Positions 1-64,000 of a stretch of DNA of 64,000 bases are shown piece after piece. The DNA is taken from the NCBI GenBank assembly GCA_038874115.1, contig JAVZDC010000001.1:266871-330870 (forward strand), given 5' to 3'. Position 1 is the first letter of the stretch. Each line of letters opens with the position of its first letter. Made by a program: the position numbers and the translations under genes. The notes beneath the pieces are model-generated. The model was not told the origin of the DNA and did no database searches. It was given only the letters and a program-made list of their open reading frames with translations. This DNA is from an archaeon (GTDB taxonomy: Archaea > B1Sed10-29 > JAVZDC01).

Positions 1-2496
1 AGCTTCTATCAAGATATCGTCATTAGAATTATTGCTCAACATGACTTGTTGTATCGAAATATCCGTCGTTCCAGAAAGATGGATTCCTGTAGAGAAATTA
101 AATATTTTGCAATTTTTTATTTGGCTGGATTGTTGAGAATTTGCCAAATAGATTCCAGATCCCGAATTTGATCCAACAATTGAATGACCTGCGCAATCAA
201 AAGTTTTTCCCGAAAAATTCACGGGAGAATTTATGCAAGTTTCTTCAGAAGTTATATTTTGAGTTAAGATAACTCCAGTACAAGCTGGATCGTTTAATTT
301 ATTAGTACAATCTCCACAAGAATTACATTCACAAGTCTGTCTCTGAGTTGGGGCGATTTGAGGATATGCATAAATAAAAACGTAATCGAACGAACCCTTA
401 CACTTCGCATCAAGCGCTATTTTATCTATAATTGGAAATACACTAGTTGTTTGAGTATCTATCAACTCTCCATTGAAAGTCCAATTTTGATTGTTTGGAA
501 AGATAATAGTATTGTATAGATTATAATTATCTAAATTTGTGGAGTAAGGACAACTTCCGCTGCCCGAGCAAATATGTTCAAAAAATCTGTAAAACGATGG
601 AGATTGTGAGAAGAACGGGGCATTCCACCACCGTTGAGTATCAAAAACAGCATATACTACATTTCCACAATCTCCGTTAATATATTCCATAGTTGCCCAT
701 GCTGAAGAACGTAAAGCTAAACCTAAAGAAGAATTTATATTACTCTTATATTTTGGTATCAGATGATGCCCCCAACCCCACCAATAGAAAGTATTATCAT
801 AAAGACCAGTAACGTTTGCGTATCCATCGGCAACTTTCCAACCTAAATGATAATACCATTTAGAATCATCCCTTGTAGAGAAATCGTCAAAAAAGTCAAA
901 TACTTGCTCTCCGTTTGATGCGCTGTCTGCTGAAAGATTTCCATAGTAATAATATATTATTTTTTGAGAATTTGCCGGAATATATGGAACATTTATCCAA
1001 ATAGAAGTACTAGGAGTATTACATCCCTTTTCAATCCAATAATTTAGGAAAGTTGATGTATCCAAATCTAAGAATCTAAGATCTGCGCAATCTGATCTCA
1101 TTTTACCTTGATCAATTAAAGATTGTGTATCTAACTCAAAATTATATCTATATTTTACAAGACTATTGCTATTATTTGAATTATCGATTAAGAAAGAATC
1201 TGAATAAGGCCAATTACTTATATTGGTAATAACAATTGTTCTTGTTTGAGAATAAGAGGTATATTCTGAGTTATAACATTTAATGTACCATGAATGTGCA
1301 CCATCTGCAGATATATTTGCAGATATATTTGTAAATGTATTGTTTTGAACTGATGTGATTAAAGAGGCCAAATTATTATCAACATAGAGGGCACAACTCA
1401 GGTTTCTATCCGAAATTACATAAAATGTAAAATTATATTCTCCTGGGCTTGTAATAAAGTAATCGCGAGGGGAGGATAAAAGTACCTGCGGACCAATTTT
1501 AACAACAGGATCAATATTCGTGAATTTTCTTACTCTTGCCCAATCTACTTCAGTAGATCCATGCCCTTGGGAAAAAATGTCCGAAGCGATTCCGATCGAA
1601 AATATTGGAGAATATGGATTTGAAAAAAGTCCAAAATAGGACATATACGGAGTATTATTTACCGAAAAAAGCATAAATTTCTCTGGTGCGATGCTCATCC
1701 CCCATAAAGAAAATGATGGAAAATCGCTCGTGTCCGGTGTTGTGTACTCTAAGAAGTCCTGCGGTACTGGACCAAATGGTGACCATACGGAATAAGCTGC
1801 GGTACCTAAATCTGTTCTATTCCTCCAGTTCACAACATACCCGTCCGGAGCATGATGACGATCATCCAAATTTGTTGAATTACTATAACCAATCGAAAAA
1901 ACGGGTTGTTCGGACGAATTTAAAATTTTTAATTCAAACCAGCTAGAATTATTGAATGTAGTTTGAGAATGAATCCAAACATAATCGGAGTAAGAAGAAG
2001 TGGAAAAAGTTATTTTGCCTGAATTAACAGAATAACTTCCTCCCGATGAGCTTTGAGAAGTCCATTTTGAAGTATTTAAAGAATTTCCATCAAAATCATC
2101 AAAAAAGTCAAAAGTCGTATATGGATTACTTGCTGAATCGGATTGATTATCATACCTCAAATAAATTACTTTCGTTGAATTTGCAAGTATTTGCGGAACT
2201 TTTACCCAAACTTTTGTCTCATTCGTATTACAACCACTTTCCAACCAAAAAGATAACATCGTCGAATTATCAGAATCTAAAAATCTAATATCTGAACAAT
2301 CTGGCTTCATTTTACCTTCGTTAATTAAAGTTTCAGAATCAAAAGTAACAAGAATTTGAAAATCAGATAAATTTTCGTAATTATTGGAATTATCAATCGT
2401 TATAAATTTGTAATAAGTTTCTGCAAAACTAATGGTAGACAAGGTAAAAAAGAATACTATAAAAGCAATTATACTTTTATTAAAAATCTGAGTCAT
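1..2496 (-). CDS. Large secreted surface protein, 3'-partial (C-terminus beyond the window start). It has an N-terminal signal peptide, two ConA-like lectin/DUF2341-like repeats and a C-terminal right-handed beta-helix-like region.
   Basis: The minus-strand frame is open from the ATG at 2496 to position 1 (no minus ORF closed in the track). It starts MTQIFNKSIIAFIVFFFTLSTISFA. A repeated module (GKMKPDCSDIRFLD.../GKMRSDCADLRFLD..., followed by FDFFDDFD and KW motifs) occurs twice. Toward the window start come a Cys-rich segment CECNSCGDCTNKLNDPACTG and then GSNSGSGIYLANS...ISTFYSGIHLSGTTD beta-helix-type repeats. It is N-glycosylation-sequon rich. Confidence 0.6.
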   Translation of the reverse strand, partial: MTQIFNKSIIAFIVFFFTLSTISFAETYYKFITIDNSNNYENLSDFQILVTFDSETLINEGKMKPDCSDIRFLDSDNSTMLSFWLESGCNTNETKVWVKVPQILANSTKVIYLRYDNQSDSASNPYTTFDFFDDFDGNSLNTSKWTSQSSSGGSYSVNSGKITFSTSSYSDYVWIHSQTTFNNSSWFELKILNSSEQPVFSIGYSNSTNLDDRHHAPDGYVVNWRNRTDLGTAAYSVWSPFGPVPQDFLEYTTPDTSDFPSFSLWGMSIAPEKFMLFSVNNTPYMSYFGLFSNPYSPIFSIGIASDIFSQGHGSTEVDWARVRKFTNIDPVVKIGPQVLLSSPRDYFITSPGEYNFTFYVISDRNLSCALYVDNNLASLITSVQNNTFTNISANISADGAHSWYIKCYNSEYTSYSQTRTIVITNISNWPYSDSFLIDNSNNSNSLVKYRYNFELDTQSLIDQGKMRSDCADLRFLDLDTSTFLNYWIEKGCNTPSTSIWINVPYIPANSQKIIYYYYGNLSADSASNGEQVFDFFDDFSTRDDSKWYYHLGWKVADGYANVTGLYDNTFYWWGWGHHLIPKYKSNINSSLGLALRSSAWATMEYINGDCGNVVYAVFDTQRWWNAPFFSQSPSFYRFFEHICSGSGSCPYSTNLDNYNLYNTIIFPNNQNWTFNGELIDTQTTSVFPIIDKIALDAKCKGSFDYVFIYAYPQIAPTQRQTCECNSCGDCTNKLNDPACTGVILTQNITSEETCINSPVNFSGKTFDCAGHSIVGSNSGSGIYLANSQQSSQIKNCKIFNFSTGIHLSGTTDISIQQVMLSNNSNDDILIEA

Positions 2497-5782: not shown

Positions 5783-6110
5783 ATCGAAAAGTTTTGCTTT
5801 TTTTACTTTTGATAGCTTGATTTTTCTAATGTTGCTAATTTTAATAATATCAAGTATCCCGAAAGAGGAAAAGATGGATAATTTCGATGTTTTACTTTAT
5901 GAAATTGCTCAAGACGCAGTCCAAACTTGTTTATACCTGGATGAGTTTAATGAAGAATGTCTTAAAGTTTTGAAAAAAATAGATAAAAACATAAATTACT
6001 GTTTTTGCGAACATGAAGGCATCAAGTTTAAAAGGTATACTTCAGAAGGTGAGAAAGTTCTAGTTGTTTGGTACTCCATTCCTAAACGAAATGATGCCTT
6101 TTTTAATTAA
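5772..6110 (+). CDS. Pilin-like protein with a class III (type IV pilin-like) signal peptide.
   Basis: The internal start MFAKSKSFAFFTFDSLIFLMLLILII matches the MKAF-hydrophobic-D pattern of the pilin paralogs at 22.7-23.9 kb. Confidence 0.4.
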   Translation: MFAKSKSFAFFTFDSLIFLMLLILIISSIPKEEKMDNFDVLLYEIAQDAVQTCLYLDEFNEECLKVLKKIDKNINYCFCEHEGIKFKRYTSEGEKVLVVWYSIPKRNDAFFN

Positions 6111-6404
6111 AAAACTTGAAAAATTGCACCTTGAATGAATGCAGAATGAATCACAGCAAAGATTTCCATTACTCGCGCTTACGTTGAGTTCTTGATTAAA
6201 AGAATAGTTTAAACTTGAAACTCCAAAAAATATTGATTTTTCACAAGCTTCTTGAACCTTAAAACAAATGTTTGAAATTTTATTTTTTAATATAATCTTT
6301 TCTCCTGCCTTTTCGAATTTTGAATATACAGGTATAAAAATAAGGATGGATGAAATCAAAAAAGCAAAAAGTATTAAATATTCTAAAGAAACTTGCGCGT
6401 TCAT
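6060..6404 (-). CDS. Pilin-like protein (class III signal peptide).
   Basis: Begins MNAQVSLEYLILFAFLISSILIF (the Q-x-S/T-x-E-Y-L motif typical of archaeal type IV pilins). Confidence 0.55.
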   Translation of the reverse strand: MNAQVSLEYLILFAFLISSILIFIPVYSKFEKAGEKIILKNKISNICFKVQEACEKSIFFGVSSLNYSFNQELNVSASNGNLCCDSFCIHSRCNFSSFLIKKGIISFRNGVPNN

Positions 6405-6556
6405 GTTGCGTTCAAAACTTTTTTCATGTTGGAAACCAAATTCGTTTTTGCGGTGGACCCAAAAGTTTTAGCAGAAACAATAAAAATAAAAGCTAAGCTT
6501 AGAAGTATTGAAGCTATTACTAAAATTTCCAAGGAAGTTTGAGCATTATCGTCCAT
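6401..6556 (-). CDS. Small pilin-like protein (51 aa, class III signal peptide). Not in the ORF track.
   Basis: Translates MDDNAQTSLEILVIASILLSLAFIFIVSAKTFGSTAKTNLVSNMKKVLNAT. Its stop overlaps the ATG of the 6060..6404 gene (ATGA). Confidence 0.5.
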   Translation of the reverse strand: MDDNAQTSLEILVIASILLSLAFIFIVSAKTFGSTAKTNLVSNMKKVLNAT

Positions 6557-6561
6557 TAAAA

Positions 6562-6738
6562 TCACTCTCCTGAAGTAATATTATCGATTGATGCTAAAAC
6601 TTTGTCAGCTTTTTCAGAAAGTTTTGTTGCAGCGTGCTTTACATTTGAATTAAGAGTATTTATAAAAACAAAAGCAACAGCAAGTAATGCTGCAATGATA
6701 ACTATCAATTCAGCTGAGATCTGCGCTCGGTCGTCCAT
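6562..6738 (-). CDS. Small pilin-like protein (class III signal peptide).
   Basis: From the internal Met: MDDRAQISAELIVIIAALLAVAFVFI..., a paralog of the 6401..6556 product. Confidence 0.5.
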   Translation of the reverse strand: MDDRAQISAELIVIIAALLAVAFVFINTLNSNVKHAATKLSEKADKVLASIDNITSGE

Positions 6739-6835
6739 GATAAAGAAAAAAAGAAAATTTAATAAAAATTTTTTCAACTGGAATAAGTTTAATCTAGTGA
6801 AAAATTTTTAAAGTTTAAAAATAGAAAAATATTGT

Positions 6836-9538: not shown

Positions 9539-9638
9539 AGAAATCGCTAAGTTATTAATCTTGCAGGAATTTATATTTTTTTCTATTAACTTTCCAGAAT
9601 CTGAAAAAGAATTTAAGAAAAAAGTATTTTTTGAAAAT
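9539..9638. promoter_or_regulatory. Divergent intergenic promoter region between cdc48 (-) and radB (+).
   Basis: About 100 nt non-coding spacer between the conserved start codons of two divergently oriented genes. AT-rich. Confidence 0.3.
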
Positions 9639-19299: not shown

Positions 19300-20050
19300 A
19301 CTTAATGAAATAATTGAAAACTTGGATATTGAATTTTCCGATTCTTGTTTTGAAAAAGAACTTTACGAAGCTTTAGATAGAAATTGTTTTGGGGATGTAG
19401 TGTTTTTTTCAGGGGGCGTCGATTCAACTCTTTTGGCTTATTTAGCAAATAAAAAGAAAAAAGTAATATGTTGTACTTGTGGAATCCCTGGTGCTGAAGA
19501 CTTAATCTTTGCTGAAAAAGTTTGTGAAAAAATGAATTGGTTGTGGCAACCAATAATCGTTGAAGATTTAAAAGAATACATAAAAGAAGTTATGAGAATA
19601 ACTCATAGAAAAGATCCTTTGGGAATCTCTCTAGGGTTAATTACATACTTGATTTTGAGTTCCAGACCTGAAAAAGTTTTTATATCTGGCTTGGGTGCTG
19701 AAGATTTATTTGCTGGGTATTCTAGGTTTAAAAAAGCAAAAAATTATGACGAATTGCACAAAATGCTTTACGATTCTTTGAAAGAACTTCCAAAAAGAGA
19801 CTATGAAAAAGATTATTTGATTGCAAGAGAACTTGGGAAAGAAATAATTTATCCTTTTTTAAGTAAAGAAGTTTTGCAAATTGCCATGAAAATACATCCA
19901 AAATATAAGCTGGGAGACCAAAATAAGTTGATTTTGAGAAAAATTGCATCAAAATACATTCCAGACTTTTCCGTTTATCGGATTAAAAGAGCAGCGCAAT
20001 TTGGTTCTGGTTTTTGGAAAAAAGTTAAGAAAATTTTAAAAGAAGTTTAA
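19283..20050 (+). CDS. PP-loop ATPase of the asparagine-synthetase C-terminal domain family (no glutaminase domain).
   Basis: VVFFSGGVDSTLLAYLA (PP-loop, SGGxDS) and the AsnB-like C-terminal block NKLILRKIASKYIP...RIKRAAQFGSG. Confidence 0.6.
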   Translation: MLSPNELNEIIENLDIEFSDSCFEKELYEALDRNCFGDVVFFSGGVDSTLLAYLANKKKKVICCTCGIPGAEDLIFAEKVCEKMNWLWQPIIVEDLKEYIKEVMRITHRKDPLGISLGLITYLILSSRPEKVFISGLGAEDLFAGYSRFKKAKNYDELHKMLYDSLKELPKRDYEKDYLIARELGKEIIYPFLSKEVLQIAMKIHPKYKLGDQNKLILRKIASKYIPDFSVYRIKRAAQFGSGFWKKVKKILKEV

Positions 20051-20409
20051 AAAACTATAATTTTGACTCCAAAAACCTTTTCCATAATTTCTTTTGCTTT
20101 TGGTGATGATTTTAATAGCATTAGGTCTGGTTTTTCTACATTAATTATTCTAGAAAGTTTATCAATCAAGCTTCCCCATTCATCGTATATTTTACATTTT
20201 GGACCAAATTTCTCAGAAAAAAACTCCAAAGTTTTTTGTTTATTCTTAATTTCTGTAGAAAAAGCAAGAGTTGAATTATCGCTATGTTCGACAATGTTTA
20301 CTAAAATAATTTTATCTGCAGAAGAACAAAACTCCAAATATTTTTCAAAAAGTTCGGACTCGTCTCCAGATATTATTGGGATTATAACCTTATGCGCGCA
20401 CATATACAC
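20047..20409 (-). CDS. Universal stress protein (UspA)-like.
   Basis: 120 aa with the pattern HKVIIPI.SGDESE...KIILVNIVE. Confidence 0.45.
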   Translation of the reverse strand: MYMCAHKVIIPIISGDESELFEKYLEFCSSADKIILVNIVEHSDNSTLAFSTEIKNKQKTLEFFSEKFGPKCKIYDEWGSLIDKLSRIINVEKPDLMLLKSSPKAKEIMEKVFGVKIIVF

Positions 20410-21121
20410 CTTTCTTCTTCTCGATAAACAAACCTTCTTCTTTTAAAACCTCGAGTAAAGCCTTACAAGCTTCCTCATTTAAACCAGTTTCTTTTACTAT
20501 TTCAGCTAAAGTCTTAGGTGTTTTTAAAATTTGCTCTAACTTTGGCCTGTATTTTTTCAAAAAGTCTTTAAAAACAATATAATATTTTTTATCAAAACTA
20601 CGAACGCCTACAACTTCAGAATCCAAAGCCAATTCTTTTATTTTTTTATTTAATTCCTCTGCTTTCTTCTCATCTGAAAAACAAAGGTATTTCTTTCTTT
20701 TTAGAACGGAAATTTCATCCCCTCCTGATTCTGGAAGTATAAACTTAAAATATTCTTTAGATATTCCGATAAGTTCCTTTTTATCCTTTACATACTTAAA
20801 AAATATTTTCTCCTCGAGCATTTTAGAAAATAAATCAAATTCTTCTTTTGTTAATACATTGCGAATGTTATCCAAAGTCCTGTTCCAATATTTTAAAGAA
20901 TTTACTTTCTTTAGAACGTTTAATTTTTTCGGATCTAGATCAGAAACTTTTTTAACAAATAAAACCAAGTTTCCATATGGATTTAAAAACTCAACTTCGT
21001 CCTCATCTTCAAGTTCTAAAATCTCCCTAACTTTTTCTGGAATTTCCACGTATCTTTTTCCTTTTAGCAAAAAAATTTTCATAAATATCAAGTTTTTGCT
21101 TGACCGAGTAATAAAACACAT
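20390..21121 (-). CDS. Hypothetical protein with a C-terminal winged-helix-like segment.
   Basis: 243 aa, C-terminus TLAEIVKETGLNEEACKALLEVLKEEGLFIEKKKGVYV. Confidence 0.4.
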   Translation of the reverse strand: MCFITRSSKNLIFMKIFLLKGKRYVEIPEKVREILELEDEDEVEFLNPYGNLVLFVKKVSDLDPKKLNVLKKVNSLKYWNRTLDNIRNVLTKEEFDLFSKMLEEKIFFKYVKDKKELIGISKEYFKFILPESGGDEISVLKRKKYLCFSDEKKAEELNKKIKELALDSEVVGVRSFDKKYYIVFKDFLKKYRPKLEQILKTPKTLAEIVKETGLNEEACKALLEVLKEEGLFIEKKKGVYVRA

Positions 21122-21579
21122 TCTTCGTCTGGATCTATCTTAACAGTAAGACCTTCATAGGTTTTATTTAAGGCAAGCTTGATTACTGTTATAAAAGGAT
21201 GGATTCTAAAACAATATGGTTCAAAACCTTCATCTAAAATAGCCTTACAAATATTCCGATAGGTGCATGGAGCACGTACTACGCATTTTAAAATCCCTTT
21301 CTTTTCTTCTATCTGTATTCTTTCAGAAGGAATAAATTTTTCTTTATCCATGAAAGCAATATATTTTTGGCAAGCTTCCAGTGGAGTTTTCGCCTTAATC
21401 TGCACTTTGCGATCATTTAACCATTTCTGTACTGCCTCTGCTTGCACTTTTCTCACAAAATCTTCATTTTCTCCCCCTACTTTTCCCAAGGCATAAATCC
21501 AAGTATTAAAAATAGTGGATAGAATTCTGTTCTGATCTTCAAGTATTTTAATCTTGTTCTCTTCTTTCATAAACACCAC
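21088..21579 (-). CDS. Cys-containing hypothetical protein (possibly a V4R-like small-molecule binding domain).
   Basis: 163 aa, C-terminal Cys cluster CVVRAPCTYRNICKAILDEGFEPYC. No secure family call. Confidence 0.4.
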   Translation of the reverse strand: MVFMKEENKIKILEDQNRILSTIFNTWIYALGKVGGENEDFVRKVQAEAVQKWLNDRKVQIKAKTPLEACQKYIAFMDKEKFIPSERIQIEEKKGILKCVVRAPCTYRNICKAILDEGFEPYCFRIHPFITVIKLALNKTYEGLTVKIDPDEECVLLLGQAKT

Positions 21580-22320
21580 TTAAAACAATCTTTCTTGAGG
21601 GTATATGGATATTCCTTTTGAAGATATTACATATGGTCTAATTGATCTATCGCAGTTTGCACCTCTTTGTTTCAATACAGTTATCCCTCTTTTCCTTTCC
21701 TCTCTACTAAGATAATCTCGCATCAATATTAAACTATCTGCTAAAAAGTCTTCAAAAGAAAATTCTTCTTCTTGTTTTGATTTCTCAGATATTATTATTG
21801 AAGTTAGGCCTTGTCTTTTAAGATATTGAAATAAAGCTGCTATTTCAACTCTTGTCTGGCTTTCATCGACGCTTGATAATTTTAAAACACTCAAGCTGTC
21901 TATCACAAGTCTAGAGTAATTCTCACTGCTTAAAGAGTCTTTTATGGTAAAATATAAATCCATGATTGTTGGAGGTTTTGGAGGAGTCATTTTTGCCAAA
22001 CTTGGACTTATTCTTGGGTCCAATTGTTCGTATTCAACTGGAGATAATTTAAACTGTTTAAAAACCAAAAGGCCTTTTTCTAAATATGCCGTTAGGGGGA
22101 TCCCCAAATTTTGTACATTATTTATTATTTGCTGACTATTTTCTTCTAAAGAAATATAAAGTCCTTTTTCTCCCAATTCTGCACCTTTTGTTAAAAATTG
22201 CACTGCGAGGATTGTTTTTCCCGATCCAGGGGTTCCAGCGATTAAGTTTACAGAATTCTTTAAAAAACCGCCCCCAAGTAAAACATCTAACCCGGGAACT
22301 CCGGATGAAACCCTTTCCAT
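21580..22320 (-). CDS. KaiC/RecA-superfamily ATPase (FlaH/ArlH-like).
   Basis: 246 aa single KaiC-like domain with Walker A IAGTPGSGKTILAVQF. Placed at the distal end of the pilus operon. Confidence 0.8.
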   Translation of the reverse strand: MERVSSGVPGLDVLLGGGFLKNSVNLIAGTPGSGKTILAVQFLTKGAELGEKGLYISLEENSQQIINNVQNLGIPLTAYLEKGLLVFKQFKLSPVEYEQLDPRISPSLAKMTPPKPPTIMDLYFTIKDSLSSENYSRLVIDSLSVLKLSSVDESQTRVEIAALFQYLKRQGLTSIIISEKSKQEEEFSFEDFLADSLILMRDYLSREERKRGITVLKQRGANCDRSIRPYVISSKGISIYPQERLF

Positions 22321-22364
22321 AATATCTCCAATTATAAAAATGCTTTCTTATTTATATATCTTTT

Positions 22365-22742
22365 TTATGATGAAAAACTACTCGAAACTGCGGAAGTTTT
22401 GCAAACCACCCCATCTTCAGTACATACTGTAAAAGTAACAGTTATACTACTTGGGCAATTATCTGAAAGGGTATAAGTGACATTCATGCCGCTCGAGTTT
22501 ACTAAACTATTTGAAAATATGCTCCTTGCATATTCTTTTCCAGTTGTGCAATTTACTGCATTACTTGTTGCGCTATAAAAAGCATTCTTTAAATCTTTTA
22601 CCCTGTATGCGACAGACAATATCTTTATTGCGTTTTGCTCAGATTCGTCAATTTTTTGCTCGACTATGAAAATCTGCAAAGCTAAAAATAGGAAAATCAC
22701 TCCAAGAGCCGCACCTATCGAAGAATAAACAAACCCTTTCAT
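22365..22742 (-). CDS. Pilin-like protein (class III signal peptide).
   Basis: MKGFVYSSIGAALGVIFLFLAL... Confidence 0.6.
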   Translation of the reverse strand: MKGFVYSSIGAALGVIFLFLALQIFIVEQKIDESEQNAIKILSVAYRVKDLKNAFYSATSNAVNCTTGKEYARSIFSNSLVNSSGMNVTYTLSDNCPSSITVTFTVCTEDGVVCKTSAVSSSFSS

Positions 22743-23032
22743 TTATAACACACCACGGTAACGTTAGCCTTTAACTGGCTCCCATCCCAGTATAAGTTTG
22801 TAAAAGCTGCTGTATCTTTTGCATTTTTACAATTTTCATTCCCTAAGTAAAAATCTTCATTTTCAAAATCGAAATTTGAGCCTACGATGAACGCATCTCT
22901 GGAGTAAAAGAAAAGATTCAAAGAAGAATGGTGTGAATAAGACATTAAATAGAAACTTACTGTTAAAAATAACGTTGCTATTGCTATCGCAAGTACGGCA
23001 TCCATTGAAATGAAAAACGCTTTCATGAACAC
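22739..23032 (-). CDS. Pilin-like protein (class III signal peptide).
   Basis: MFMKAFFISMDAVLAIAIATLFL... It overlaps the neighbouring genes by 4 nt and 10 nt. Confidence 0.6.
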   Translation of the reverse strand: MFMKAFFISMDAVLAIAIATLFLTVSFYLMSYSHHSSLNLFFYSRDAFIVGSNFDFENEDFYLGNENCKNAKDTAAFTNLYWDGSQLKANVTVVCYK

Positions 23033-23475
23033 ACCTTAACTATTAAATCACCATTATATTCAGTTGAATCATTTACAACTTTAACTAATCTTTTGATTGT
23101 TGCTAGATTATTCTTCCTGAAGCATGCATCTTTATTCCAATACTCATGGTTTGCCCTTCCTAATCCAGGCTTATATGCTCCGTATGCCAATTCAACTTCA
23201 AAAGTATACCTTGCTATCCCGGAATTCTTTAAATATTCGCATCCGCTTTTTATTGTACTCATGTTTACTTTATTATCGTAGCCTGGCAAAATTGTTGAAT
23301 TTTTGGTTAAAAACTCTGAAATATCTTCTGCTTGGAAAAAAAGATCGTAGTTCTGGAATTCTTTTGTTTTCGAAACATAAACATCCAAAAAGTGAAAAGT
23401 AAAGCCTACCAAAAATAAACCAAGAGCTGCAGACAAAAGAAAATCTAAAGTAAAAATTTGAGCTTTCATACACAA
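23023..23475 (-). CDS. Pilin-like protein (class III signal peptide).
   Basis: MCMKAQIFTLDFLLSAALGLFLV... Confidence 0.6.
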   Translation of the reverse strand: MCMKAQIFTLDFLLSAALGLFLVGFTFHFLDVYVSKTKEFQNYDLFFQAEDISEFLTKNSTILPGYDNKVNMSTIKSGCEYLKNSGIARYTFEVELAYGAYKPGLGRANHEYWNKDACFRKNNLATIKRLVKVVNDSTEYNGDLIVKVCS

Positions 23476-23850
23476 TCACGGGAGTAACATTTCACCTGGT
23501 CGTATCTTAACGTTTAATGCAGCTATTTGTGAAGAGTCTTGATTCCTGCAAGTAGCTTGAATTTTTGAATTTTGATAAGAAAAATTACAAACGTCTAATC
23601 TTGCGCCTTCTATTTTCATTTGACTATAGTTAGATAAATCTTCTCGAAATGTTAAATCCCGCTGAGTATAATGAGTGGATAAAAGGTTTGCTTGATGAGC
23701 TAATCCCCAAGCCATAACGTCTGCTGAAAGTTTTAATGCTTTTGAACCCATCATCGCGAAATCTTGGGTAAATAAAAGTAAAAAACTTCCAAATATTAAA
23801 GTTAACAACATCGCAATCATCAAATCTAAAGATGAAAAAGCCTTCATCAT
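23476..23850 (-). CDS. Pilin-like protein (class III signal peptide).
   Basis: MMKAFSSLDLMIAMLLTLIFGSF... Confidence 0.6.
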   Translation of the reverse strand: MMKAFSSLDLMIAMLLTLIFGSFLLLFTQDFAMMGSKALKLSADVMAWGLAHQANLLSTHYTQRDLTFREDLSNYSQMKIEGARLDVCNFSYQNSKIQATCRNQDSSQIAALNVKIRPGEMLLP

Positions 23851-24149
23851 TCTCCCCTTATCTCAACTGTATAACCACCAAGATTTTTTTCGCTCAAGTA
23901 TGCTTGAACTCCGTCAGGAGTGATTGAACACGATTCTTTTTTGATAGTCAGAGTAATCTCGTTTTTATCTAAAGTTTGGGATTCAACTATACAAAAGTTG
24001 GAAAGAGCGTATTCTTTTGCAAAAGCTAAAGCTCGAATATCGTCGCTTTTCGATACGAAAATACCAGTGAATGAAACCACGGTGAAAGTAATCGCTGCTA
24101 AAATAATTAATAGTTCGAAAGTGGTTTGACCTTTATGTCCTTTTAACAA
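23847..24149 (-). CDS. Pilin-like protein (class III signal peptide).
   Basis: MLKGHKGQTTFELLIILAAITF... (KGQ-TxFE motif). Confidence 0.65.
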   Translation of the reverse strand: MLKGHKGQTTFELLIILAAITFTVVSFTGIFVSKSDDIRALAFAKEYALSNFCIVESQTLDKNEITLTIKKESCSITPDGVQAYLSEKNLGGYTVEIRGE

Positions 24150-24534
24150 TTACCTCACCAAATGAATTTGCAGATATCGATTGCCCTGCATTATCGTATT
24201 CAAATCCGGATGGTAAGATTCCAAAAGTTTGAGGAACATCTTTGGCTGGAGAATTTGGATTGCAACTTGCAGTAATATTGTTGTTATTCAATATATACGC
24301 ACAATCATAAGGAGCTTTTAGAAGAATTGTAACTTTTGCTCCAGATCCTTGAGTTTTCAAGAAGTTTACTGCTTGTTTTACTTTCGTATCGGATGCTTTA
24401 ATTAAACTATTTGCTTCAAGAAGAATGCCTGTATCTGCTGACTTTAAAGCAAGATTCAAGGATATTGTTGAAAATATGAGAAGTGAAATTGCTAAGATGA
24501 CTAAATATTCTATTGTTATTTGGCCTTTCATCAT
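24133..24534 (-). CDS. Pilin-like protein (class III signal peptide).
   Basis: MMKGQITIEYLVILAISLLIF... Confidence 0.65.
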   Translation of the reverse strand: MMKGQITIEYLVILAISLLIFSTISLNLALKSADTGILLEANSLIKASDTKVKQAVNFLKTQGSGAKVTILLKAPYDCAYILNNNNITASCNPNSPAKDVPQTFGILPSGFEYDNAGQSISANSFGEVIVKRT

Positions 24535-24692
24535 ACCACCAAGTTCATAATTTGGTTCTTAAAACTATCTAAAATTGTCACTCCTGCTTGCGATAAAGAA
24601 ATTATTTGGGAAACTAAAGCAAATATCACTATGGAAAACATAAAAAGGACTACGAGACCAAGTAAATATTCGAAAGAAGTTTGGCCTTTCAT
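24531..24692 (-). CDS. Small pilin-like protein (53 aa). Not in the ORF track.
   Basis: Translates MKGQTSFEYLLGLVVLFMFSIVIFALVSQIISLSQAGVTILDSFKNQIMNLVV. ATGA overlap with the downstream gene. Confidence 0.55.
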   Translation of the reverse strand: MKGQTSFEYLLGLVVLFMFSIVIFALVSQIISLSQAGVTILDSFKNQIMNLVV

Positions 24693-24847
24693 GAAAGCAC
24701 CTTTGTTTTTATCGCATCTAAAAGACCCACAACTGTATCTTTTAAACCAAATATTTGAAGTATTAACGCTAAAAGTACGATAGCGATTACTAGAGTTAAA
24801 GCAAGGGACATCAAATAATCTAAAGAAACTTGGGCTTTGTTATCCAT
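24689..24847 (-). CDS. Small pilin-like protein (52 aa). Not in the ORF track.
   Basis: Translates MDNKAQVSLDYLMSLALTLVIAIVLLALILQIFGLKDTVVGLLDAIKTKVLS. ATGA overlap with the downstream gene. Confidence 0.55.
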   Translation of the reverse strand: MDNKAQVSLDYLMSLALTLVIAIVLLALILQIFGLKDTVVGLLDAIKTKVLS

Positions 24848-24853
24848 AAGTTG

Positions 24854-25600
24854 TTAAAAGCATGGGAAATTTAAAAACTTTGCCACAGGCCCGTACAAGA
24901 AACCTAAAGAAAGTAAAAAAGCTAAAGGAAAACTTCTTTTAACTTTTACTTTTTTGAAATGTTCCTTCAAAATTTGAGCCTCTTTTTCAGAAATTCCTGA
25001 AGCCTTTGGAATTATTCTATATTTTCCAACTTTGATTTCTTCGGCTAAAATCAATCCTTCTCTTGGTTCTGTTTCAAACGTAAAAATCGAATCTTTTGAA
25101 GATTTGAAAGCATGGAAAAATAGGAAAAAGTATGTGGAAATTAAAAATGCGGGAAAATAAGCAATTTCAAAAAGGGAAAAGAATAAAAACGTTAAACAAA
25201 GGATTAAAGCAAGTTTGCTTGACTTTAAAGATTTGAAGAATTTTTCCCTATTTTTTAAAACTGCGAAACTAATGACGTAAGCTGACGCTAGAGGAAAGAA
25301 TAAAATAAGGGCTTGTAAGATAGCTAGGAAAGGATAAAAACAAATAGAGAAACAAGGCATAAGGGCACTTGCAGCAGTGAAAAATTTTACATCTCCCCCT
25401 CCAACTAACCTAATTTTATAAAGAACATAAAAAGAGAGAAATGAAAGTAATACTACGAAAAAAGTTTGAGGGTAAAAATTTATTATAATCCCTGTACTTA
25501 AGAAAAAATAATTCAATTCTCTTGGAATTTTATGATACTTCAAATCGAAAAAAGATGTAAGAATGAAAAAGATTAAAGAATAAAAAAGGGTTAAAGACAT
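24854..25600 (-). CDS. Type IV prepilin peptidase (A24 family; PibD/FlaK/EppA-like) with a C-terminal extension.
   Basis: Polytopic protein with the D...GGGDVK motif (RLVGGGDVKFFTAASALMP) and an N-terminal DLKYHKIP (first catalytic Asp). Confidence 0.8.
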   Translation of the reverse strand: MSLTLFYSLIFFILTSFFDLKYHKIPRELNYFFLSTGIIINFYPQTFFVVLLSFLSFYVLYKIRLVGGGDVKFFTAASALMPCFSICFYPFLAILQALILFFPLASAYVISFAVLKNREKFFKSLKSSKLALILCLTFLFFSLFEIAYFPAFLISTYFFLFFHAFKSSKDSIFTFETEPREGLILAEEIKVGKYRIIPKASGISEKEAQILKEHFKKVKVKRSFPLAFLLSLGFLYGPVAKFLNFPCF

Positions 25601-25626
25601 CGCAGGTTTTTGTAAAGCTTTATTTT

Positions 25627-25947
25627 TTAAGGTTCACAGTTTAAAAAAGACGCTTGGGTGGCTGTAGTATTATTACATGCGACAACCATGGTGGAGCCAA
25701 GAGTACATCCCGATTTGGAATTTCCAATATCCGAACAACCAGCTGTGCATATCGAAGTACAATCAAAAGTAGGTGCTATTGCTCTTTTCTGCTGGCATTG
25801 AGCAAAAGCTTCTTCACATTTTGCAAGACTTGCAGATTTCGTACTTGTCTTAAATGCTCCAGTCATAAACAAAACGACTACTGCAGCAATTGCTAAAACT
25901 GCTGCGACCATGATTAGGTATTCTAAAGAACCTTGCCCTTTTTTCAT
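25627..25947 (-). CDS. Cys-rich type IV pilin (class III signal peptide). Probable major pilin.
   Basis: MKKGQGSLEYLIMVAAVLAIAAVVVLF... followed by 10 Cys in a short mature domain. Confidence 0.7.
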   Translation of the reverse strand: MKKGQGSLEYLIMVAAVLAIAAVVVLFMTGAFKTSTKSASLAKCEEAFAQCQQKRAIAPTFDCTSICTAGCSDIGNSKSGCTLGSTMVVACNNTTATQASFLNCEP

Positions 25948-26027
25948 TTTGTCTCACCCCTTGAATTAAAAAAGAAAGAAGAATATTTAAATTTTTCTTT
26001 TTTAAAGATCACGAATTCAAGTAATAT

Positions 26028-26921
26028 TTATAATGCTGCCGGTACGCCTAAACCAAGCATTGAAATAAATAAAGACGCGACAAATACATATATCAAATAT
26101 GCACCAAGCATTGCGATCGGGATCAAAACAACTCCTTTGGAAAGGTCGCCTTCTCTAACTTGGACTGCGCCTGCCGTAGTTAAAGCTGCAGAAACTATGA
26201 CATAAAACTTGAATAAAGTATCGAATTGAGCAACCATGGAAAAAGTTTCTTGAGTCATTTCTCCTCCCATGCCAACCAAAATCTGAAGAACTGATTTTAC
26301 AATTCCGAAAACAAATGGAGCGACCCCTGCTCCCGCAACTAAAATAAATAAAAATTGCATGAATGTTTTAGTCTTTCTTTCTCTTTTCAATCTATAAAGA
26401 GCACGAATATCATCAGCCAAAGCGGTTAAAGTATCCAAAAGGGAGCCTCCAGCTTTTTTTGCTGCGATTATTATGACTGCGGCTCTTTGTAACATTTCAG
26501 ATTTTGATCTAGTTGCAAAGTCTGAAAATGCTGTCTCAAATGGCTTCCCCTCATACATCTCTTTAAGCATATCTTTTACTCCTGATGTTATTGGCCCATA
26601 ATTTGCTTTAGATACCTCAGTCAAAGCTGTTTCGATAGTCCCACCAGTTTTTAAAGTTGTACCGATGTGGTGCAAAACATCAGGTAATCTACTTTCAATA
26701 TTAGCTATCTTTCTTTGAACAAGATAAAAAGGCCCTCCTATTGAAAGGTCTAAAACTAAAACAAATAGAAGAAAACCAAGTGTTGGATCGACAAAATACA
26801 AGGAAAATAAGAGAATTAAAGCTATGGCTATGCCTCCGAATAAAAGGAATTTTGGATTTATTTTTATGTCTGCGTATTCCACTGCATCTTCATATTTTGC
26901 CAATAGTTCTGAAATGTCCAT
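26028..26921 (-). CDS. TadC/FlaJ-like pilus assembly membrane protein.
   Basis: 297 aa polytopic protein of the GspF/TadC type. Follows its paralog and the ATPase. Confidence 0.7.
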   Translation of the reverse strand: MDISELLAKYEDAVEYADIKINPKFLLFGGIAIALILLFSLYFVDPTLGFLLFVLVLDLSIGGPFYLVQRKIANIESRLPDVLHHIGTTLKTGGTIETALTEVSKANYGPITSGVKDMLKEMYEGKPFETAFSDFATRSKSEMLQRAAVIIIAAKKAGGSLLDTLTALADDIRALYRLKRERKTKTFMQFLFILVAGAGVAPFVFGIVKSVLQILVGMGGEMTQETFSMVAQFDTLFKFYVIVSAALTTAGAVQVREGDLSKGVVLIPIAMLGAYLIYVFVASLFISMLGLGVPAAL

Positions 26922-26923
26922 TC

Positions 26924-28090
26924 TTAAGCACCCGGATCTGAAACTTTAATGTAATAAATAAACACAAAGATTAACGCTGGACATATTACGAAATATAAAA
27001 GAATCAAAAAATCCACGCTAAATACGGAAAACATTGCCAGATATTTCTTTATGGCTGGAGCACTACCGATTGTTGTTAATATTGTTATCATGACTGGTAA
27101 AACAACAGCCCCCATCATTAAAAACAATCCTAACAAATTTAATTTTTCTGCGAAATCAGCTATTTTTGATTTTCTTTCAAAAGATACATCTTCCGCAATG
27201 GTTATCATTATTTCGGATAAATTTCCCCCAGTCCTTAAAGCTCTAACAATGTGTGCAACTACTCTCTTCAATGCTTCTGAATTTGTTTTATTCGCCCAAG
27301 CTTGCAATGCATCTTCAGTCGGAATTCCTTTTTCTATATTGAGAAGAACCCATCTTAAACCTTCTGAAAACGCTCCATATCCTCCATGAGCAACAGATGT
27401 TAAAGTCTTATGAATTCCGACCCCTGCTCTAATCTCGATTGACATGTGTCTTAACGCAAAAGGCAAATGTTTTTCTATATCTGCAGCTATCTTTGATGCT
27501 CTACTTCTTGGAATCACTAAACCAAAAGCAAGCCCAACAAAAGGCAATATTAACAACCCTAAAACTAAAATAGGTAAACTTATTGCTCCTACGAACAAAA
27601 GCAAGATAAAAAAGATTAAAGCTACAAGCTCGAGTATAAAAATTCCGGAAATTAAAAGTGCGATATACTGTTGAGCCGTATAAGGCATATCTGCCGCAGC
27701 GAGTTGATCTTCCAACCCTTTACCAAAAAGTCTTTCAAAAAAAGTAGAAAAATATGAAAGAATATTTTGGAATTTAAGGTAAAAACTTCCTAAAGCTCTA
27801 ATTGTCGGATTCTCATGCGCCTGAAGTTCTCTCACAGTAGGTCCAACTATTTTAGTTGCTCTTGGCCCGTAGTCCAAAACCTCTTTCAAAGCTGCCGCTC
27901 GTCCATATTCTTCTATAGTGATACCCTCTTCCACGTATTTCGATTTTAATCTTTCCACAATTTTAGAAAGAACCTCGTAATCTACAGCTTCTTCACTTTT
28001 AATTTCTTCCTTTTCTTCTTTTTTCGCTGGTTTCTTCTCTAAAATTTTCTTTAAATCTTCAATTCTACCCATGCTTTTCAGACTCCTCAA
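26924..28090 (-). CDS. TadB/TadC/FlaJ-like pilus assembly membrane protein.
   Basis: 388 aa with a cytoplasmic N-domain and multiple TM helices. Overlaps the ATPase gene. Confidence 0.7.
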   Translation of the reverse strand: MRSLKSMGRIEDLKKILEKKPAKKEEKEEIKSEEAVDYEVLSKIVERLKSKYVEEGITIEEYGRAAALKEVLDYGPRATKIVGPTVRELQAHENPTIRALGSFYLKFQNILSYFSTFFERLFGKGLEDQLAAADMPYTAQQYIALLISGIFILELVALIFFILLLFVGAISLPILVLGLLILPFVGLAFGLVIPRSRASKIAADIEKHLPFALRHMSIEIRAGVGIHKTLTSVAHGGYGAFSEGLRWVLLNIEKGIPTEDALQAWANKTNSEALKRVVAHIVRALRTGGNLSEIMITIAEDVSFERKSKIADFAEKLNLLGLFLMMGAVVLPVMITILTTIGSAPAIKKYLAMFSVFSVDFLILLYFVICPALIFVFIYYIKVSDPGA

Positions 28091-29699
28091 ATTTACGTAT
28101 TTCTAATGCGACATCCGATAATTTTCGTATATTTTTCTTAACTAAAATTTCTAGGAAATCTTTCCTTTTTTCTTTTTCGTAATCGAGATCACTTTTTGAC
28201 ATCCCTGTAAACTTCATCAGCCTGTTTTCATACCTTGAAGATAAATTATTATTCTTTATTATGTCTGGAGCTGGGTCCCATTCGAAAAGAAGTTGAGTTT
28301 GAGGAGCATTCCCTGCTATACCTTGAATTTCAGCAAGTTCTGTCACTCTTCTAATTGTACCTTTTCTAGGATCTACAATTCTTTGTTGCATCAAGACAAA
28401 ATCCAAAGCGTCAAGCATCACTAAAGGAACATTCATCGGTGGGCTTAGAAGACGAACTAATGTTTCCTGAGCACTGTTTGCATGAACTGTACCCATGCAT
28501 CCATGGTGCCCAGTGTTCATGGCAGTGAACAAAGTAAAAGCTTCTGCATGTCTTATTTCCCCGACTATGATTCTGTCAGGTCTCATTCTCAAAGTATTTT
28601 TAACCAAAGTATCTAAAGTAATTTCTCCCAAACCTTCGATACTTGGAGGTCTAGCTTCAAAACGTATCCAATGCGAAAGAGGTAAATTAAGTTCTGCCGT
28701 ATCTTCTATAGAAAGAACTCTTTCTCTTGGGGGTATGAAAGATGCTAAAACGTTTAAAGTTGTAGTTTTCCCAGATCCTGTTCCTCCAGCAACCAAAATA
28801 TTTGCTGGATGCGCACCAAGCCCGGTAACTGCTAACCATAAGAACGCTGCTAATTCTGAAGATATTGTTCCATATTTTATTAAATCTACAACTGAATAAG
28901 GATCTGATCTAAATTTTCGGATAGTCAAAGTTGATCCATTCAAAGAAATTGGAGGAATAGTTGCGTTAACTCTGGATCCATCTGGTAGTCTTGCATCTAA
29001 AATCGGAGACTGCAAGTCAACTCTTCTATTTACATCTCTAGCGATTCTATCTATTATATTTCGAATTTCAGAATCGTCAGAAAAAACAACATTTGTCTTA
29101 AGCATGCCAAACTCTCGATGAAAAACATAAACTGGAGCTTGCGGTCCAATTACCATGATTTCTTCCAATTTATCATCTCTTACAAGATCATCAATAAGCC
29201 CATACCCAACCATTTCTTTCATGACTTGGAGAGCATAAAAATCAACTCTAGTGGAAGGTACTCCAAGTTCTGGACTTGCTTCTATTATTTCTTTAACTTT
29301 TTTGAAGTAAAATTCTCTTTTCCTCTCTATATCTCTGAATTCTTCAGGAGAAACTGTTATCAACCTTGTTGCGGCTTCTTTTATTGTTGAAATTAAAACT
29401 TTTTCTGGCCCTGTTGGTCTAACAACAGGAATCGCATATATTAGCAAAGGCTCTCCAGGCACTTTATAAATTCTTACAGAACCATAACTCGCTATCAAAC
29501 TTTTTTCTTTAGGCAACTCTGCTTCAATCTCTAAAAACTTTTGCTCAACTTTTAATTCTGGTTTTCCCTCTTTTTTTAATTCCGGTTTTTCTTCAGGTTT
29601 TTTCTCTTCAACCTTTTCTTCCACGGGCTTTACTGGAACGATTCCAGCTTCTCTTTCTTTTTTTGCTTTTTTCATTAATTCCTCAATATAAGAAGGCAT
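28065..29699 (-). CDS. Type IV pilus assembly ATPase (FlaI/TadA/VirB11 family).
   Basis: 544 aa with Walker A GGTGSGKTTTLN and Asp/His boxes typical of secretion ATPases. Confidence 0.9.
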   Translation of the reverse strand: MPSYIEELMKKAKKEREAGIVPVKPVEEKVEEKKPEEKPELKKEGKPELKVEQKFLEIEAELPKEKSLIASYGSVRIYKVPGEPLLIYAIPVVRPTGPEKVLISTIKEAATRLITVSPEEFRDIERKREFYFKKVKEIIEASPELGVPSTRVDFYALQVMKEMVGYGLIDDLVRDDKLEEIMVIGPQAPVYVFHREFGMLKTNVVFSDDSEIRNIIDRIARDVNRRVDLQSPILDARLPDGSRVNATIPPISLNGSTLTIRKFRSDPYSVVDLIKYGTISSELAAFLWLAVTGLGAHPANILVAGGTGSGKTTTLNVLASFIPPRERVLSIEDTAELNLPLSHWIRFEARPPSIEGLGEITLDTLVKNTLRMRPDRIIVGEIRHAEAFTLFTAMNTGHHGCMGTVHANSAQETLVRLLSPPMNVPLVMLDALDFVLMQQRIVDPRKGTIRRVTELAEIQGIAGNAPQTQLLFEWDPAPDIIKNNNLSSRYENRLMKFTGMSKSDLDYEKEKRKDFLEILVKKNIRKLSDVALEIRKFEESEKHG

Positions 29700-29746
29700 A
29701 TTTTAAAAAAGCAAAAGTATTTAAAAATTTAATCATTTATGTAGAT

Positions 29747-63713: not shown

Positions 63714-64000
63714 ATGGAGTTCATCGCTTGGTTTTTAATATTTCTCATAACTGGAATCGCTGCTTTACAAGATTTAAAAACAGGGTATGTTTCGGATAAT
63801 TTAATGCATACTGCTATTCTTTTAGCAATAATTCTTGTTCCTTTCTTATATCCTGATAATTTCCTAAATCAGTACGGGATTGCTTTTATCACTTTTATAT
63901 TCTTTTTCTCTATGTATCTTTTTGGCCAGATTGGTGGCGGGGATGTAAAAGTATTTAGCTTTCTTGCTTTACTTCTTCCTCAAACGGAATTTCCAAGGAT
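63714..64000 (+). CDS. Second type IV prepilin peptidase (A24 family), 3'-partial (continues beyond the window).
   Basis: MEFIAWFLIFLITGIAALQDLKTGYVSD...FGQIGGGDVKVF (both catalytic Asp motifs). Confidence 0.6.
   Translation, partial: MEFIAWFLIFLITGIAALQDLKTGYVSDNLMHTAILLAIILVPFLYPDNFLNQYGIAFITFIFFFSMYLFGQIGGGDVKVFSFLALLLPQTEFPR

Follow-up and report, generated by a model that had tools for sequence, protein, structure and literature searches.

The 64,000-nt stretch analysed here, hereafter the window (contig JAVZDC010000001.1, positions 266,871 to 330,870, from an archaeon of the B1Sed10-29 lineage), carries on its minus strand a compact cluster of type IV pilus (T4P) genes followed by a gene for a KaiC-family ATPase. 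We interpret the 13 genes at 22365-29699 as an Epd-like T4P operon of Clade 1/System 1, the archaeal sister of bacterial Tad pili, in a small AT-rich archaeon of the DPANN type, and the KaiC gene together with the three genes behind it as a lineage-specific module; this combined interpretation is probably correct. Judged from its sequence, the pilus operon itself is a well-conserved DPANN representative of a kind that has been described before.

Organization of the pilus locus

An open reading frame (ORF) check of the window recovered 14 genes on the minus strand from 29699 down to 21580, with the coordinates at which they were first listed, and the co-directional gene set and order put forward in the original prediction were confirmed. 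Reading from 29699 to 22365, a gene for a T2SSE ATPase comes first, then two for single-domain T2SSF proteins, one for a Cys-rich class III pilin, one for an A24 peptidase, and eight for pilin-like proteins (Table 1). The supposed end of the block at the KaiC gene had to be moved, as three more co-directional genes follow it, down to 20047, with gaps of 9, 5, and -14 nt. The host genome has a G+C content of ~33%, and intergenic regions are very short, with the gap table giving -17 to +6 nt between the pilin genes. The largest gap in the block precedes the Cys-rich pilin gene (80 nt) and the second largest the KaiC gene (44 nt).

Three intergenic regions could hold transcription signals. The divergent region upstream of the ATPase gene is likely the operon promoter, giving a transcript whose 5' end would be short or leaderless; the region upstream of the Cys-rich pilin gene is a possible internal promoter, and the one between the last pilin gene and the KaiC gene possibly represents a promoter of KaiC's own or a weak terminator. 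The layout upstream of KaiC (GATATATAAATAAG) is similar to that upstream of the Cys-rich pilin gene (AAAAATTTAAATA, with GGGGTGA). TATA-like motifs are weak evidence for promoters in a genome of 33% G+C. A scan of positions 20000-30000 with bacterial sigma-70 and intrinsic-terminator models was uninformative on archaeal transcription units (32 and 6 hits, respectively, versus 31.9 and 6.0 in shuffled sequences). The Rfam search of the whole window returned four tRNAs only, and no RNA element was found at the pilus locus.

Conservation of the operon and its surroundings

Relatives of the operon were reached through a homologue search with the ATPase and then through the encoding contigs, and the neighbourhoods of seven loci were compared, comprising five full operons (L019/L020, L021, L022, L025, and L108) and two variants (L023 and L024). 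Close homologues of the ATPase number in the hundreds: E was <= 1e-30 for every one of the 8000 candidates scored, and identities of 55-69% were common. The source names for these homologues were Micrarchaeota, Diapherotrites, Nanoarchaeota, and 'DPANN group'.

The five full operons share one gene order, consisting of an ATPase gene (516-540 aa), two platform genes (~388-396 and ~291-314 aa), a Cys-rich pilin gene (89-117 aa), and the A24 peptidase gene, followed by two pilin genes of 46-58 aa and then by at least six pilin-like genes of ~100-190 aa. By tblastn, the proteins of the window were 63-69% (ATPase), ~50% (platform protein 1), and 51-60% (platform protein 2) identical to their positional counterparts, and the N-termini matched gene by gene between the window and the orthologous operons. 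The surroundings are conserved as well. The upstream synteny includes ELP3, GatD, GatB, TtuA, ThiS, ACT, a radical-SAM gene, and the threonyl-tRNA synthetase (ThrRS) gene, while RLI and Pelota are shared downstream.

The site directly behind the last pilin-like gene differs. In the full operons, this gene is followed by genes for a 105-112-aa membrane protein, TctA, a JAB-domain protein, and a phosphomutase, with RLI or Pelota next in three of them. The same position in the window is taken by KaiC, three unannotated genes, and a convergent Asn-synthase-like gene, after which RLI and Pelota follow. The KaiC gene and the three genes behind it occupy the site at which relatives carry the small gene and the TctA-JAB-phosphomutase set. 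The 125-aa pilin-like gene is the last one held in common with the orthologous operons.

At the other border of the operon, two indolepyruvate/2-oxoacid:ferredoxin oxidoreductase genes (POR_N/TPP_enzyme_C, then POR) lie between the ThrRS gene and the pilus operon (29747-32202, plus strand). In four of the five relatives with a full operon, at most one small gene separates the ThrRS gene from the ATPase gene, and the POR genes are thus a second lineage-specific insertion at the operon border.

The two variant loci (L023, 7862-13665; L024, 15723-21608) retain the ATPase, both platform proteins, pilins, and the peptidase, and lack the minor-pilin array. In its place they encode a 573-577-aa protein and a ~1500-aa FG-GAP repeat protein, and three pilin genes stand before the peptidase gene. 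Another variation was observed in a single relative (L019, 13738-15876; L020, 5340-7478), where a gene for a 712-aa WD40/beta-propeller protein lies between the second platform gene and the pilin gene. Its N-terminus gave a tblastn match (1e-14) to the Cys-rich pilin in the class III signal-peptide region, and the protein may be a pilin-fused adhesin.

Table 1. Features of the pilus locus, the KaiC module, and other pilus-related genes in the window.
Feature	Coordinates	Strand	Evidence or motif
Intergenic, divergent, 47 nt, 5' of ATPase gene	29700..29746	-	TTTTTAAATA; TATA-like box ~20-27 nt before ATG
Pilus assembly ATPase, 544 aa, T2SSE / CpaF-TadA-FlaI superfamily	28065..29699	-	Pfam T2SSE 1.9e-50
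Platform protein 1, 382-388 aa, TadB/TadC-like	26924..28090	-	Pfam T2SSF 7.3e-20, single stretch
Platform protein 2, 297 aa, TadB/TadC-like	26028..26921	-	Pfam T2SSF 2e-19, single stretch
Intergenic, 80 nt, 5' of Cys-rich pilin gene	25948..26027	-	AAAAATTTAAATA; TATA-like box and GGGGTGA Shine-Dalgarno
Cys-rich class III signal-peptide pilin, 106 aa, 8 Cys	25627..25947	-	MKKG/QGSLEYL...; Pfam Class_IIIsignal (PF04021) 1.9e-09
A24 prepilin (class III signal) peptidase, 248 aa	24854..25600	-	Pfam Peptidase_A24 7.2e-11
Short Flp/Epd-like pilin, 52 aa, without globular domain	24689..24847	-	MDNKA/QVSLDYL...; motif scan
Second short Flp/Epd-like pilin, 53 aa	24531..24692	-	MKG/QTSFEYL...; motif scan
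Minor pilin-like, 133 aa	24133..24534	-	MMKG/QITIEYL...; Class_IIIsignal 2.6e-4, sub-threshold; orthologues 33% identical, E 1e-15 to 5e-20
Minor pilin-like, 100 aa	23847..24149	-	..KG/QTTFELL...; Class_IIIsignal 9.6e-3, sub-threshold; positional orthologues KGQTTFE
Minor pilin-like, 124 aa	23476..23850	-	MMKA/FSSLDL...; motif scan; positional orthologues M[RK]KG..[ST]LDA
Minor pilin-like, 148-150 aa	23023..23475	-	MKA/QIFTLDF...; tblastn L022 3e-8, L019 1.7e-4; ~25% identity; N-terminus MKGQIFTLD conserved
Minor pilin-like, 95-97 aa	22739..23032	-	MKA/FFISMDAV...; orthologues M.KG[FI]VF[ST][LM]DA; weak tblastn match L021
Minor pilin-like, 125 aa	22365..22742	-	MKG/FVYSSIGAAL...; motif scan; tblastn L022 4e-11, 38% identity
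44-nt gap, last pilin gene/KaiC	22321..22364	-	GATATATAAATAAG; TATA-like, T5 run, GGAG 5-8 nt upstream of ATG
Single-domain KaiC-family ATPase, 246 aa	21580..22320	-	Pfam KaiC PF06745 4.5e-52
Orphan protein, 160 aa, 9 nt after KaiC	21088..21570	-	May have a Bet3/V4R-like fold (model, predicted local distance difference test, pLDDT, ~60)
Putative DNA-binding regulator, 230 aa	20390..21082	-	AbrB/MazE-like N-terminal domain and winged-helix C-terminus
118-aa protein, last in co-directional run	20047..20403	-	May have a USP/HUP-like alpha/beta fold (low-confidence model, pLDDT ~60)
Stand-alone pilin, 58 aa	6562-6738	-	MDDRA/QISAEL; Class_IIIsignal (PF04021) 30.1 bits, cut-off 23.7; weak Flp1_like match
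Pilin-like ORF, 54 aa	6401-6565	-	Motif scan
Cys-containing pilin, 114 aa	6060-6404	-	Class_IIIsignal 1.5e-4
Large protein, at least 832 aa (cut at window start), hydrophobic N-terminal segment, two DUF2341	1..2496	-	Pfam DUF2341 1.6e-48
Second A24 prepilin peptidase gene, cut at window end	63714..64000	+	Pfam Peptidase_A24 4.5e-12; local HMM (hidden Markov model) 7.7e-12

Assembly ATPase and platform proteins

The ATPase is named 'CpaF family' by NCBI. Its best-scoring NCBIfam model was the FlaI equivalog NF058587, at 318.7 bits against a cut-off of 550; the TadA family scored 247 bits and BasE 177 bits against a cut-off of 1000. Among PDB structures, Caulobacter crescentus CpaF ranked first (265 bits), followed by Archaeoglobus fulgidus GspE (afGspE; 255 bits) and FlaI (219 bits), and the identities in the core (residues 149-475) followed the same order, with 46.2% to CpaF, 41.5% to afGspE, and 38.9% to Sulfolobus acidocaldarius FlaI. 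The C-terminal 70 residues align to FlaI and afGspE, not to CpaF. The match to the Methanobrevibacter ATPase (L015) was partial only, at 27% identity. The gene for platform protein 1 overlaps the ATPase gene by 8 nt, and the platform is split over two contiguous genes with one T2SSF domain each, whereas the FlaJ gene of the archaellum locus L007 is a single gene with two such stretches.

That locus (L007, 2-6130), from an uncultured archaeon, is a canonical archaellum cluster, with a FlaD/E-like gene, two Arch_flagellin genes, FlaH, a 628-aa FlaI, and a 547-aa FlaJ with two T2SSF stretches, and it served as a control: both Arch_flagellin and Arch_fla_DE were detected there, and neither family was found in the nine pilin-like proteins of the operon. 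The pilus locus and the archaellum have in common a homologous ATPase and platform, a filament protein processed by an A24 peptidase, and a KaiC-fold ATPase encoded nearby. They differ in that the block of the window lacks archaellins and ArlF/G/C/D/E/X, that its platform is split rather than formed by a single two-domain ArlJ, and that its KaiC is not ArlH and is encoded after the pilins instead of directly ahead of the ATPase gene. It is accordingly very improbable that the locus encodes a reduced archaellum, or a protein-secretion/bindosome system in place of an adhesive pilus. Such a reading could draw on FlaI as the top NCBIfam model, on the C-terminal 70 residues aligning to FlaI/afGspE and not CpaF, and on the BasE match, but the FlaI and BasE scores are far below their cut-offs, the platform is unlike FlaJ, the pilins bear a DUF361-type QxSxE motif, and the block contains no archaellins, FlaF/G, FlaC/D/E/X, or ArlH and no substrate-binding proteins with class III signals. 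These results uphold three claims of the original prediction, namely that the locus is Tad/Epd-like rather than an archaellum (the sub-cut-off FlaI score, the higher core identity to CpaF than to FlaI, and the divided platform), that the platform is split, and that archaellum-specific genes are absent (none of the nine pilin-like proteins matched Arch_flagellin).

A scan of genome contigs with the ATPase yielded only distant relatives (<=44% identity) without the operon; three of these loci (L002-L004) have no platform genes beside the ATPase gene, and the archaellum locus L007 was another of them.

Two further observations concern the ATPase family. The N-terminus of the window's ATPase (residues 1-65, 29505-29699) is a K/E-rich low-complexity tail of ~65 residues (KKAKKEREAG...EEKVEEKKPEEKPELKKEGKPELK), and for many homologues the match spans no more than 87-91% of the query, an indication that this tail is variable. 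In addition, very high scores were obtained for a set of homologues of 790-950 aa (P0110-P0112, P0114, P0122, and P0134-P0140), some from Hydrothermarchaeales, that cover ~66-88% of the query at 45-49% identity; they bear extra PF27713, PF23989, and FtsK_SpoIIIE-like domains and look like fused or extended secretion ATPases.

Pilins and prepilin peptidase

The Cys-rich pilin had been credited with 10 Cys and regarded as unusual in this respect; the count is 8, and an alignment of nine orthologous pilins, with 6-10 Cys each, identified Cys-richness as a conserved trait of the family. C44, C51, C71, and C104 are invariant in the nine orthologues, and the framework C-x6-C ... C-x3-C-x3-C ... C is largely kept, pointing to a small head domain that would be stabilised by disulfides. 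No other gap in the block is as large as the one upstream of this gene, where a TATA-like box and a Shine-Dalgarno sequence are present; this would fit high, separate expression and a role as the major subunit. Epd/Tad fibres, however, consist of short Flp-like pilins, three of which are encoded here (52, 53, and 58 aa).

The eight small proteins behind the peptidase (52, 53, 133, 100, 124, 150, 97, and 125 aa, in gene order) had no significant Pfam match. All eight begin with a short basic stretch running to [KR][GA], followed by ~20 hydrophobic residues. Gln occupies position +1 in five of them, and these five and the 124-aa protein have Asp or Glu at +5 or +6; with the Cys-rich pilin included, six of the nine operon pilins have Gln at +1. 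The matches of their N-termini to those of positional orthologues are far beyond chance. Orthologues of the 52-aa pilin (52-58 aa) are present in L019, L021, L022, L025, and L108 with the N-terminus MDNKAQVS.EYL, and the relatives likewise have two short pilins in tandem.

In the operon's peptidase, both catalytic Asp residues (D19 and that of the GGD70 motif, G68-G69-D70) are invariant in seven orthologues. A crude hydropathy scan gave five clear transmembrane (TM) segments in its 248 aa; the EppA type (arCOG02300) is a 9-TM form. The Arc_PepC match was weak and restricted to two orthologues.

Relationship to described pilus systems

The organization of the locus had been thought to match no described archaeal pilus. 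This does not stand, because it fits Clade 1 of Makarova, System 1, and the hallmark of the Epd/Tad clade of Denise. In the account of Makarova 2016 (PMC4858521), a Clade 1 locus combines an ATPase gene and a pair of TadC genes with EppA as its dedicated peptidase and five or more minor pilins; the major pilins are small and often encoded on their own, and DUF2341 adhesins belong to the set. The Epd-like/Tad clade is characterized by two contiguous single-T2SSF platform genes and short pilins (Denise 2019, PMC6668835), and 'System 1' has been reported in methanogens, Thermococcales, and DPANN (Sivabalasarma & Albers 2026 preprint, 10.64898/2026.04.22.720090). The micrarchaeon Mia14 has T4P loci of both the Clade 1 and the euryarchaeal type, with key components common to many Micrarchaeota (Golyshina et al. 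2017).

As in the Epd-like systems, such as the EppA-dependent Epd pili of Methanococcus maripaludis, the ATPase gene of the window adjoins two contiguous single-domain T2SSF genes, the system has an A24 peptidase dedicated to it, and the pilins show Q at +1 together with the DUF361 QxSxE motif. Minor pilins number at least five in both (here six, 97-150 aa), and a DUF2341 adhesin-like protein is another common element. The window also encodes very short pilins of the ~50-70-aa kind that lack a globular domain, one of them standing alone, which may serve as major subunits as in the Epd-like systems. The differences are that nearly the whole locus of the window forms one compact operon (ATPase, two platform genes, Cys-rich pilin, peptidase, two short and six minor pilins), that a conserved disulfide-rich pilin of 90-127 aa lies between the platform genes and the peptidase gene, and that the peptidase is short (248 aa). 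No FleN/MinD gene (arCOG00589, TadZ-like) was seen in the block, for which no dedicated MinD/ParA search was made; the one ATPase encoded there besides the assembly ATPase is the KaiC-family protein, which the orthologous loci lack.

Likewise, the order of ATPase, TadB-like, and TadC-like genes with one T2SSF domain per platform gene, the short Flp-like pilin, the dedicated A24 peptidase, and the best PDB match of the ATPase are features of the bacterial Tad/Flp (type IVc) systems. In contrast to these, the block, in which every gene is accounted for, contains no secretin RcpA, TadZ, TadD/G, or RcpB/C. Its ATPase is extended at the C-terminus in the archaeal manner, in a part that aligns to afGspE and FlaI, its signal peptides belong to the archaeal class III/DUF361 type, and its host is an archaeon.

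The KaiC-family ATPase

The KaiC protein retains intact Walker A (GTPGSGKT), Walker B (LVIDS), and catalytic EE (SLEE) motifs. It scored 46 bits on the ArlH equivalog NF052589 (cut-off 215) and 41.9 and 21 bits on FlaH models (cut-offs 194 and 215, respectively), and general KaiC models scored far higher (PRK09302, 146 bits; KaiC_arch_3, 136 bits). The PDB matches were led by true KaiC (8zn5, 196 bits), followed by PH0284 and PH0186, with no FlaH structure among those listed, and the identity to the FlaH of the archaellum locus L007 was 23%. The earlier label 'FlaH-like' is therefore not appropriate. A duplication of the circadian CI+CII type was not found, the protein having a single domain, and no KaiB or KaiA matches were detected among its neighbours.

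KaiC had also been counted as a component of the operon. The gene is absent from all seven orthologous loci (L019-L025 and L108), it is separated by the 44-nt gap with a TATA-like box, and its nearest homologues occur in KaiC-KaiC pairs; we thus place it outside the conserved operon. As read from these sequences, its adjacency to the pilus operon is specific to this genome among the loci compared.

Only three database proteins were 45-47% identical to KaiC, with the next at <=37%. For two of the three nearest homologues, the neighbouring gene in head-to-head orientation encodes a second KaiC-like protein of 229 aa; the contigs (7.1 and 3.1 kb) have no pilus genes nearby. A pilus component was detected in only 2 of 80 KaiC-like metagenome loci (37 of the 80 being at least 8 kb) with HMMs built from the operon family, and a general linkage of this KaiC clade to T4P was rejected as a rule.

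The closest KaiC relatives (L016, 4291-5776; L026, 1061-2542; L029, 1621-3040) are all paired with the 229-aa KaiC-like gene, either head-to-head or in tandem, and small unannotated genes come behind the pair; of such a pair, only the 246-aa member is present in the window. The sole other KaiC-like match in the window, at 9387-10280 on the plus strand, was set aside as a second KaiC and is RadB-like instead; this longest-ORF call of the RecA family overlaps a Cdc48-type AAA ATPase gene (7388-9703, minus strand), and the true RadB start probably differs from the one called.

The putative downstream cassette and its possible link to the pilus

The three genes behind KaiC encode proteins of 160, 230, and 118 aa. 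A homologue search with the 160-aa protein returned nothing beyond itself. The family of the 230-aa protein comprises 402 representatives (E<=1e-3), which are unannotated, some members being 280-350 aa long with three matched stretches. Its homologues match MazE_antitoxin (SpoVT/AbrB) at the N-terminus (6e-7 to 1e-4) and weakly match winged helix-turn-helix (wHTH) families in the conserved C-terminal half, and the window's own protein gave weak domain matches only; it is probably a DNA-binding regulator. Together, KaiC and the three genes most likely form a signalling or transcription-regulation cassette, which may or may not control the neighbouring pilus genes. A regulatory link between the cassette and the pilus is plausible by precedent and unsupported by conservation.

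Several points weigh against treating the locus as a Clade 1 operon with a lineage-specific module beside it. Read-through transcription of KaiC with the pilus operon is entirely possible, as the gene is co-directional, lies 44 nt downstream, and has a GGAG site. KaiC-family ATPases (arCOG01171/01174/01175) occur next to archaeal T4P loci and were predicted to be T4P regulators (Makarova 2016, PMC4858521), and FlaH (arCOG04148) was reported as a secondary ATPase contiguous with the Epd ATPase (Denise 2019, PMC6668835). At L029, a 37%-identical KaiC gene, part of a tandem pair, lies 0.65 kb from a convergent TadC pair. The assignment to Clade 1 rather than Clade 2 is probable, by gene content and a modest identity ranking, and many Clade 2 loci likewise have two tadC genes (Makarova 2016, PMC4858521). 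Moreover, the fold hints for the 160- and 118-aa proteins are weak, coming from models with pLDDT ~60, and adhesion to a host is a role that we infer for the pilus.

The first of these points would also support KaiC as a true accessory of the pilus motor, either an independently recruited analogue of ArlH, which binds ArlI, or a secondary ATPase like the FlaH of Epd loci, co-transcribed and modulating the assembly ATPase through ATP-dependent oligomerisation or autophosphorylation. The co-directional position with its own ribosome-binding site, the intact Walker A, Walker B, and catalytic EE residues, the KaiC-family and FlaH genes in or next to archaeal T4P and Epd operons (PMC4858521, PMC6668835), and the KaiC pair adjoining TadC genes at L029 are all in line with this. 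We nevertheless regard it as unlikely: the gene is missing from seven of seven orthologous loci whose machines are otherwise gene-for-gene equivalent, the protein does not belong to the ArlH family and has low identity to the FlaH of L007, its nearest relatives lie away from pilus genes, and it is tightly packed with three non-pilus genes downstream.

A tentative alternative, somewhat easier to accept, is that KaiC and the three genes are an independent regulatory cassette that targets the adjacent pilus operon in the manner of CirA, with the AbrB-wHTH protein as its DNA-binding output. In Haloferax volcanii, the KaiC-like protein CirA is encoded beside the arl genes and represses their transcription (PMC10983859). 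This precedent, the regulators of T4P predicted among KaiC proteins by Makarova (PMC4858521), the tight clustering of the four genes, and the SpoVT/AbrB and weak wHTH matches of the 230-aa homologues point in this direction. Similar to CirA and the T4P-adjacent KaiC regulators, the window has an intact P-loop KaiC beside a type IV filament cluster, which makes a regulatory role plausible. The cirA gene, however, is divergent from its cluster, whereas the KaiC gene of the window is co-directional and single-domain, and its neighbours (160, 230, and 118 aa) are not the partners described for such regulators. The adjacency is also not conserved in relatives and was found in one genome only, and the widespread 230-aa family showed no link to pili, the one context recovered being a 1.3-kb contig. 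This alternative overlaps the preferred reading of a lineage-specific module, which leaves the target of the cassette open.

A stronger form of the connection, in which a canonical single-domain KaiC was captured at the 3' end of the operon, is co-transcribed with it, and acts with the AbrB-wHTH protein as a phosphorylation or ATP-state switch of pilus assembly or expression, appears doubtful. If true, it would unite a KaiC-fold ATPase with a type IV filament motor for a second, independent time, in a system other than the archaellum. The adjacency of KaiC matters only if a functional link to the pilus is demonstrated.

Proposed assembly and role of the pilus

By analogy with related machines, the Clade 1-type operon would work as follows. 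Prepilins would insert into the membrane, where the operon's A24 aspartyl protease would cut the short leader after [KR][GA], leaving six of nine substrates with an initial Gln. The hexameric CpaF/TadA-like ATPase would then turn or push the heteromeric platform of two single-domain T2SSF proteins, and the platform would lift pilins from the bilayer and polymerise the growing fibre. The six pilin-like proteins of 97-150 aa are probably joined in a complex that primes assembly or caps the tip, the fibre itself may be built from the disulfide-rich 106-aa pilin, from the short Flp-like pilins of 52, 53, and 58 aa, or from both, and the DUF2341 protein is a candidate tip adhesin. The pilus would probably be used to adhere to surfaces or to host cells. 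Most of the tiny DPANN archaea depend on a host, and pili are among the foremost candidates for the means of attaching to it.

The locus calls for no new category of pilus, as its divided platform, its dedicated peptidase, its set of pilins, and the recurrence of KaiC genes next to such loci have all been described already. The compact 13-gene Epd-like operon and its chromosomal neighbourhood are conserved across many DPANN genomes and can therefore serve as an annotation template and as a target for structural work.

Other pilus-related genes in the window

A second, pilin-only cluster lies at 6060..6777 on the minus strand and consists of the 58-aa Flp/Epd-like pilin, the 54-aa pilin-like ORF, and the 114-aa Cys-containing pilin. 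This cluster likely serves the machine of the operon. The DUF2341 gene, a candidate for a PilY-like adhesin, adjoins the cluster and is located ~20 kb from the pilus operon. The second A24 gene, at the far end of the window, brings the prepilin peptidases of the genome to two or more, counting the one encoded in the pilus operon. Opposite the pilin-only cluster, the plus strand has a series of four small ORFs that overlap one another and have hydrophobic N-termini (4793-5179, 5170-5463, 5432-5782, and 5736-6110), the last of which has an N-terminus similar to that of the operon's 97-aa minor pilin.

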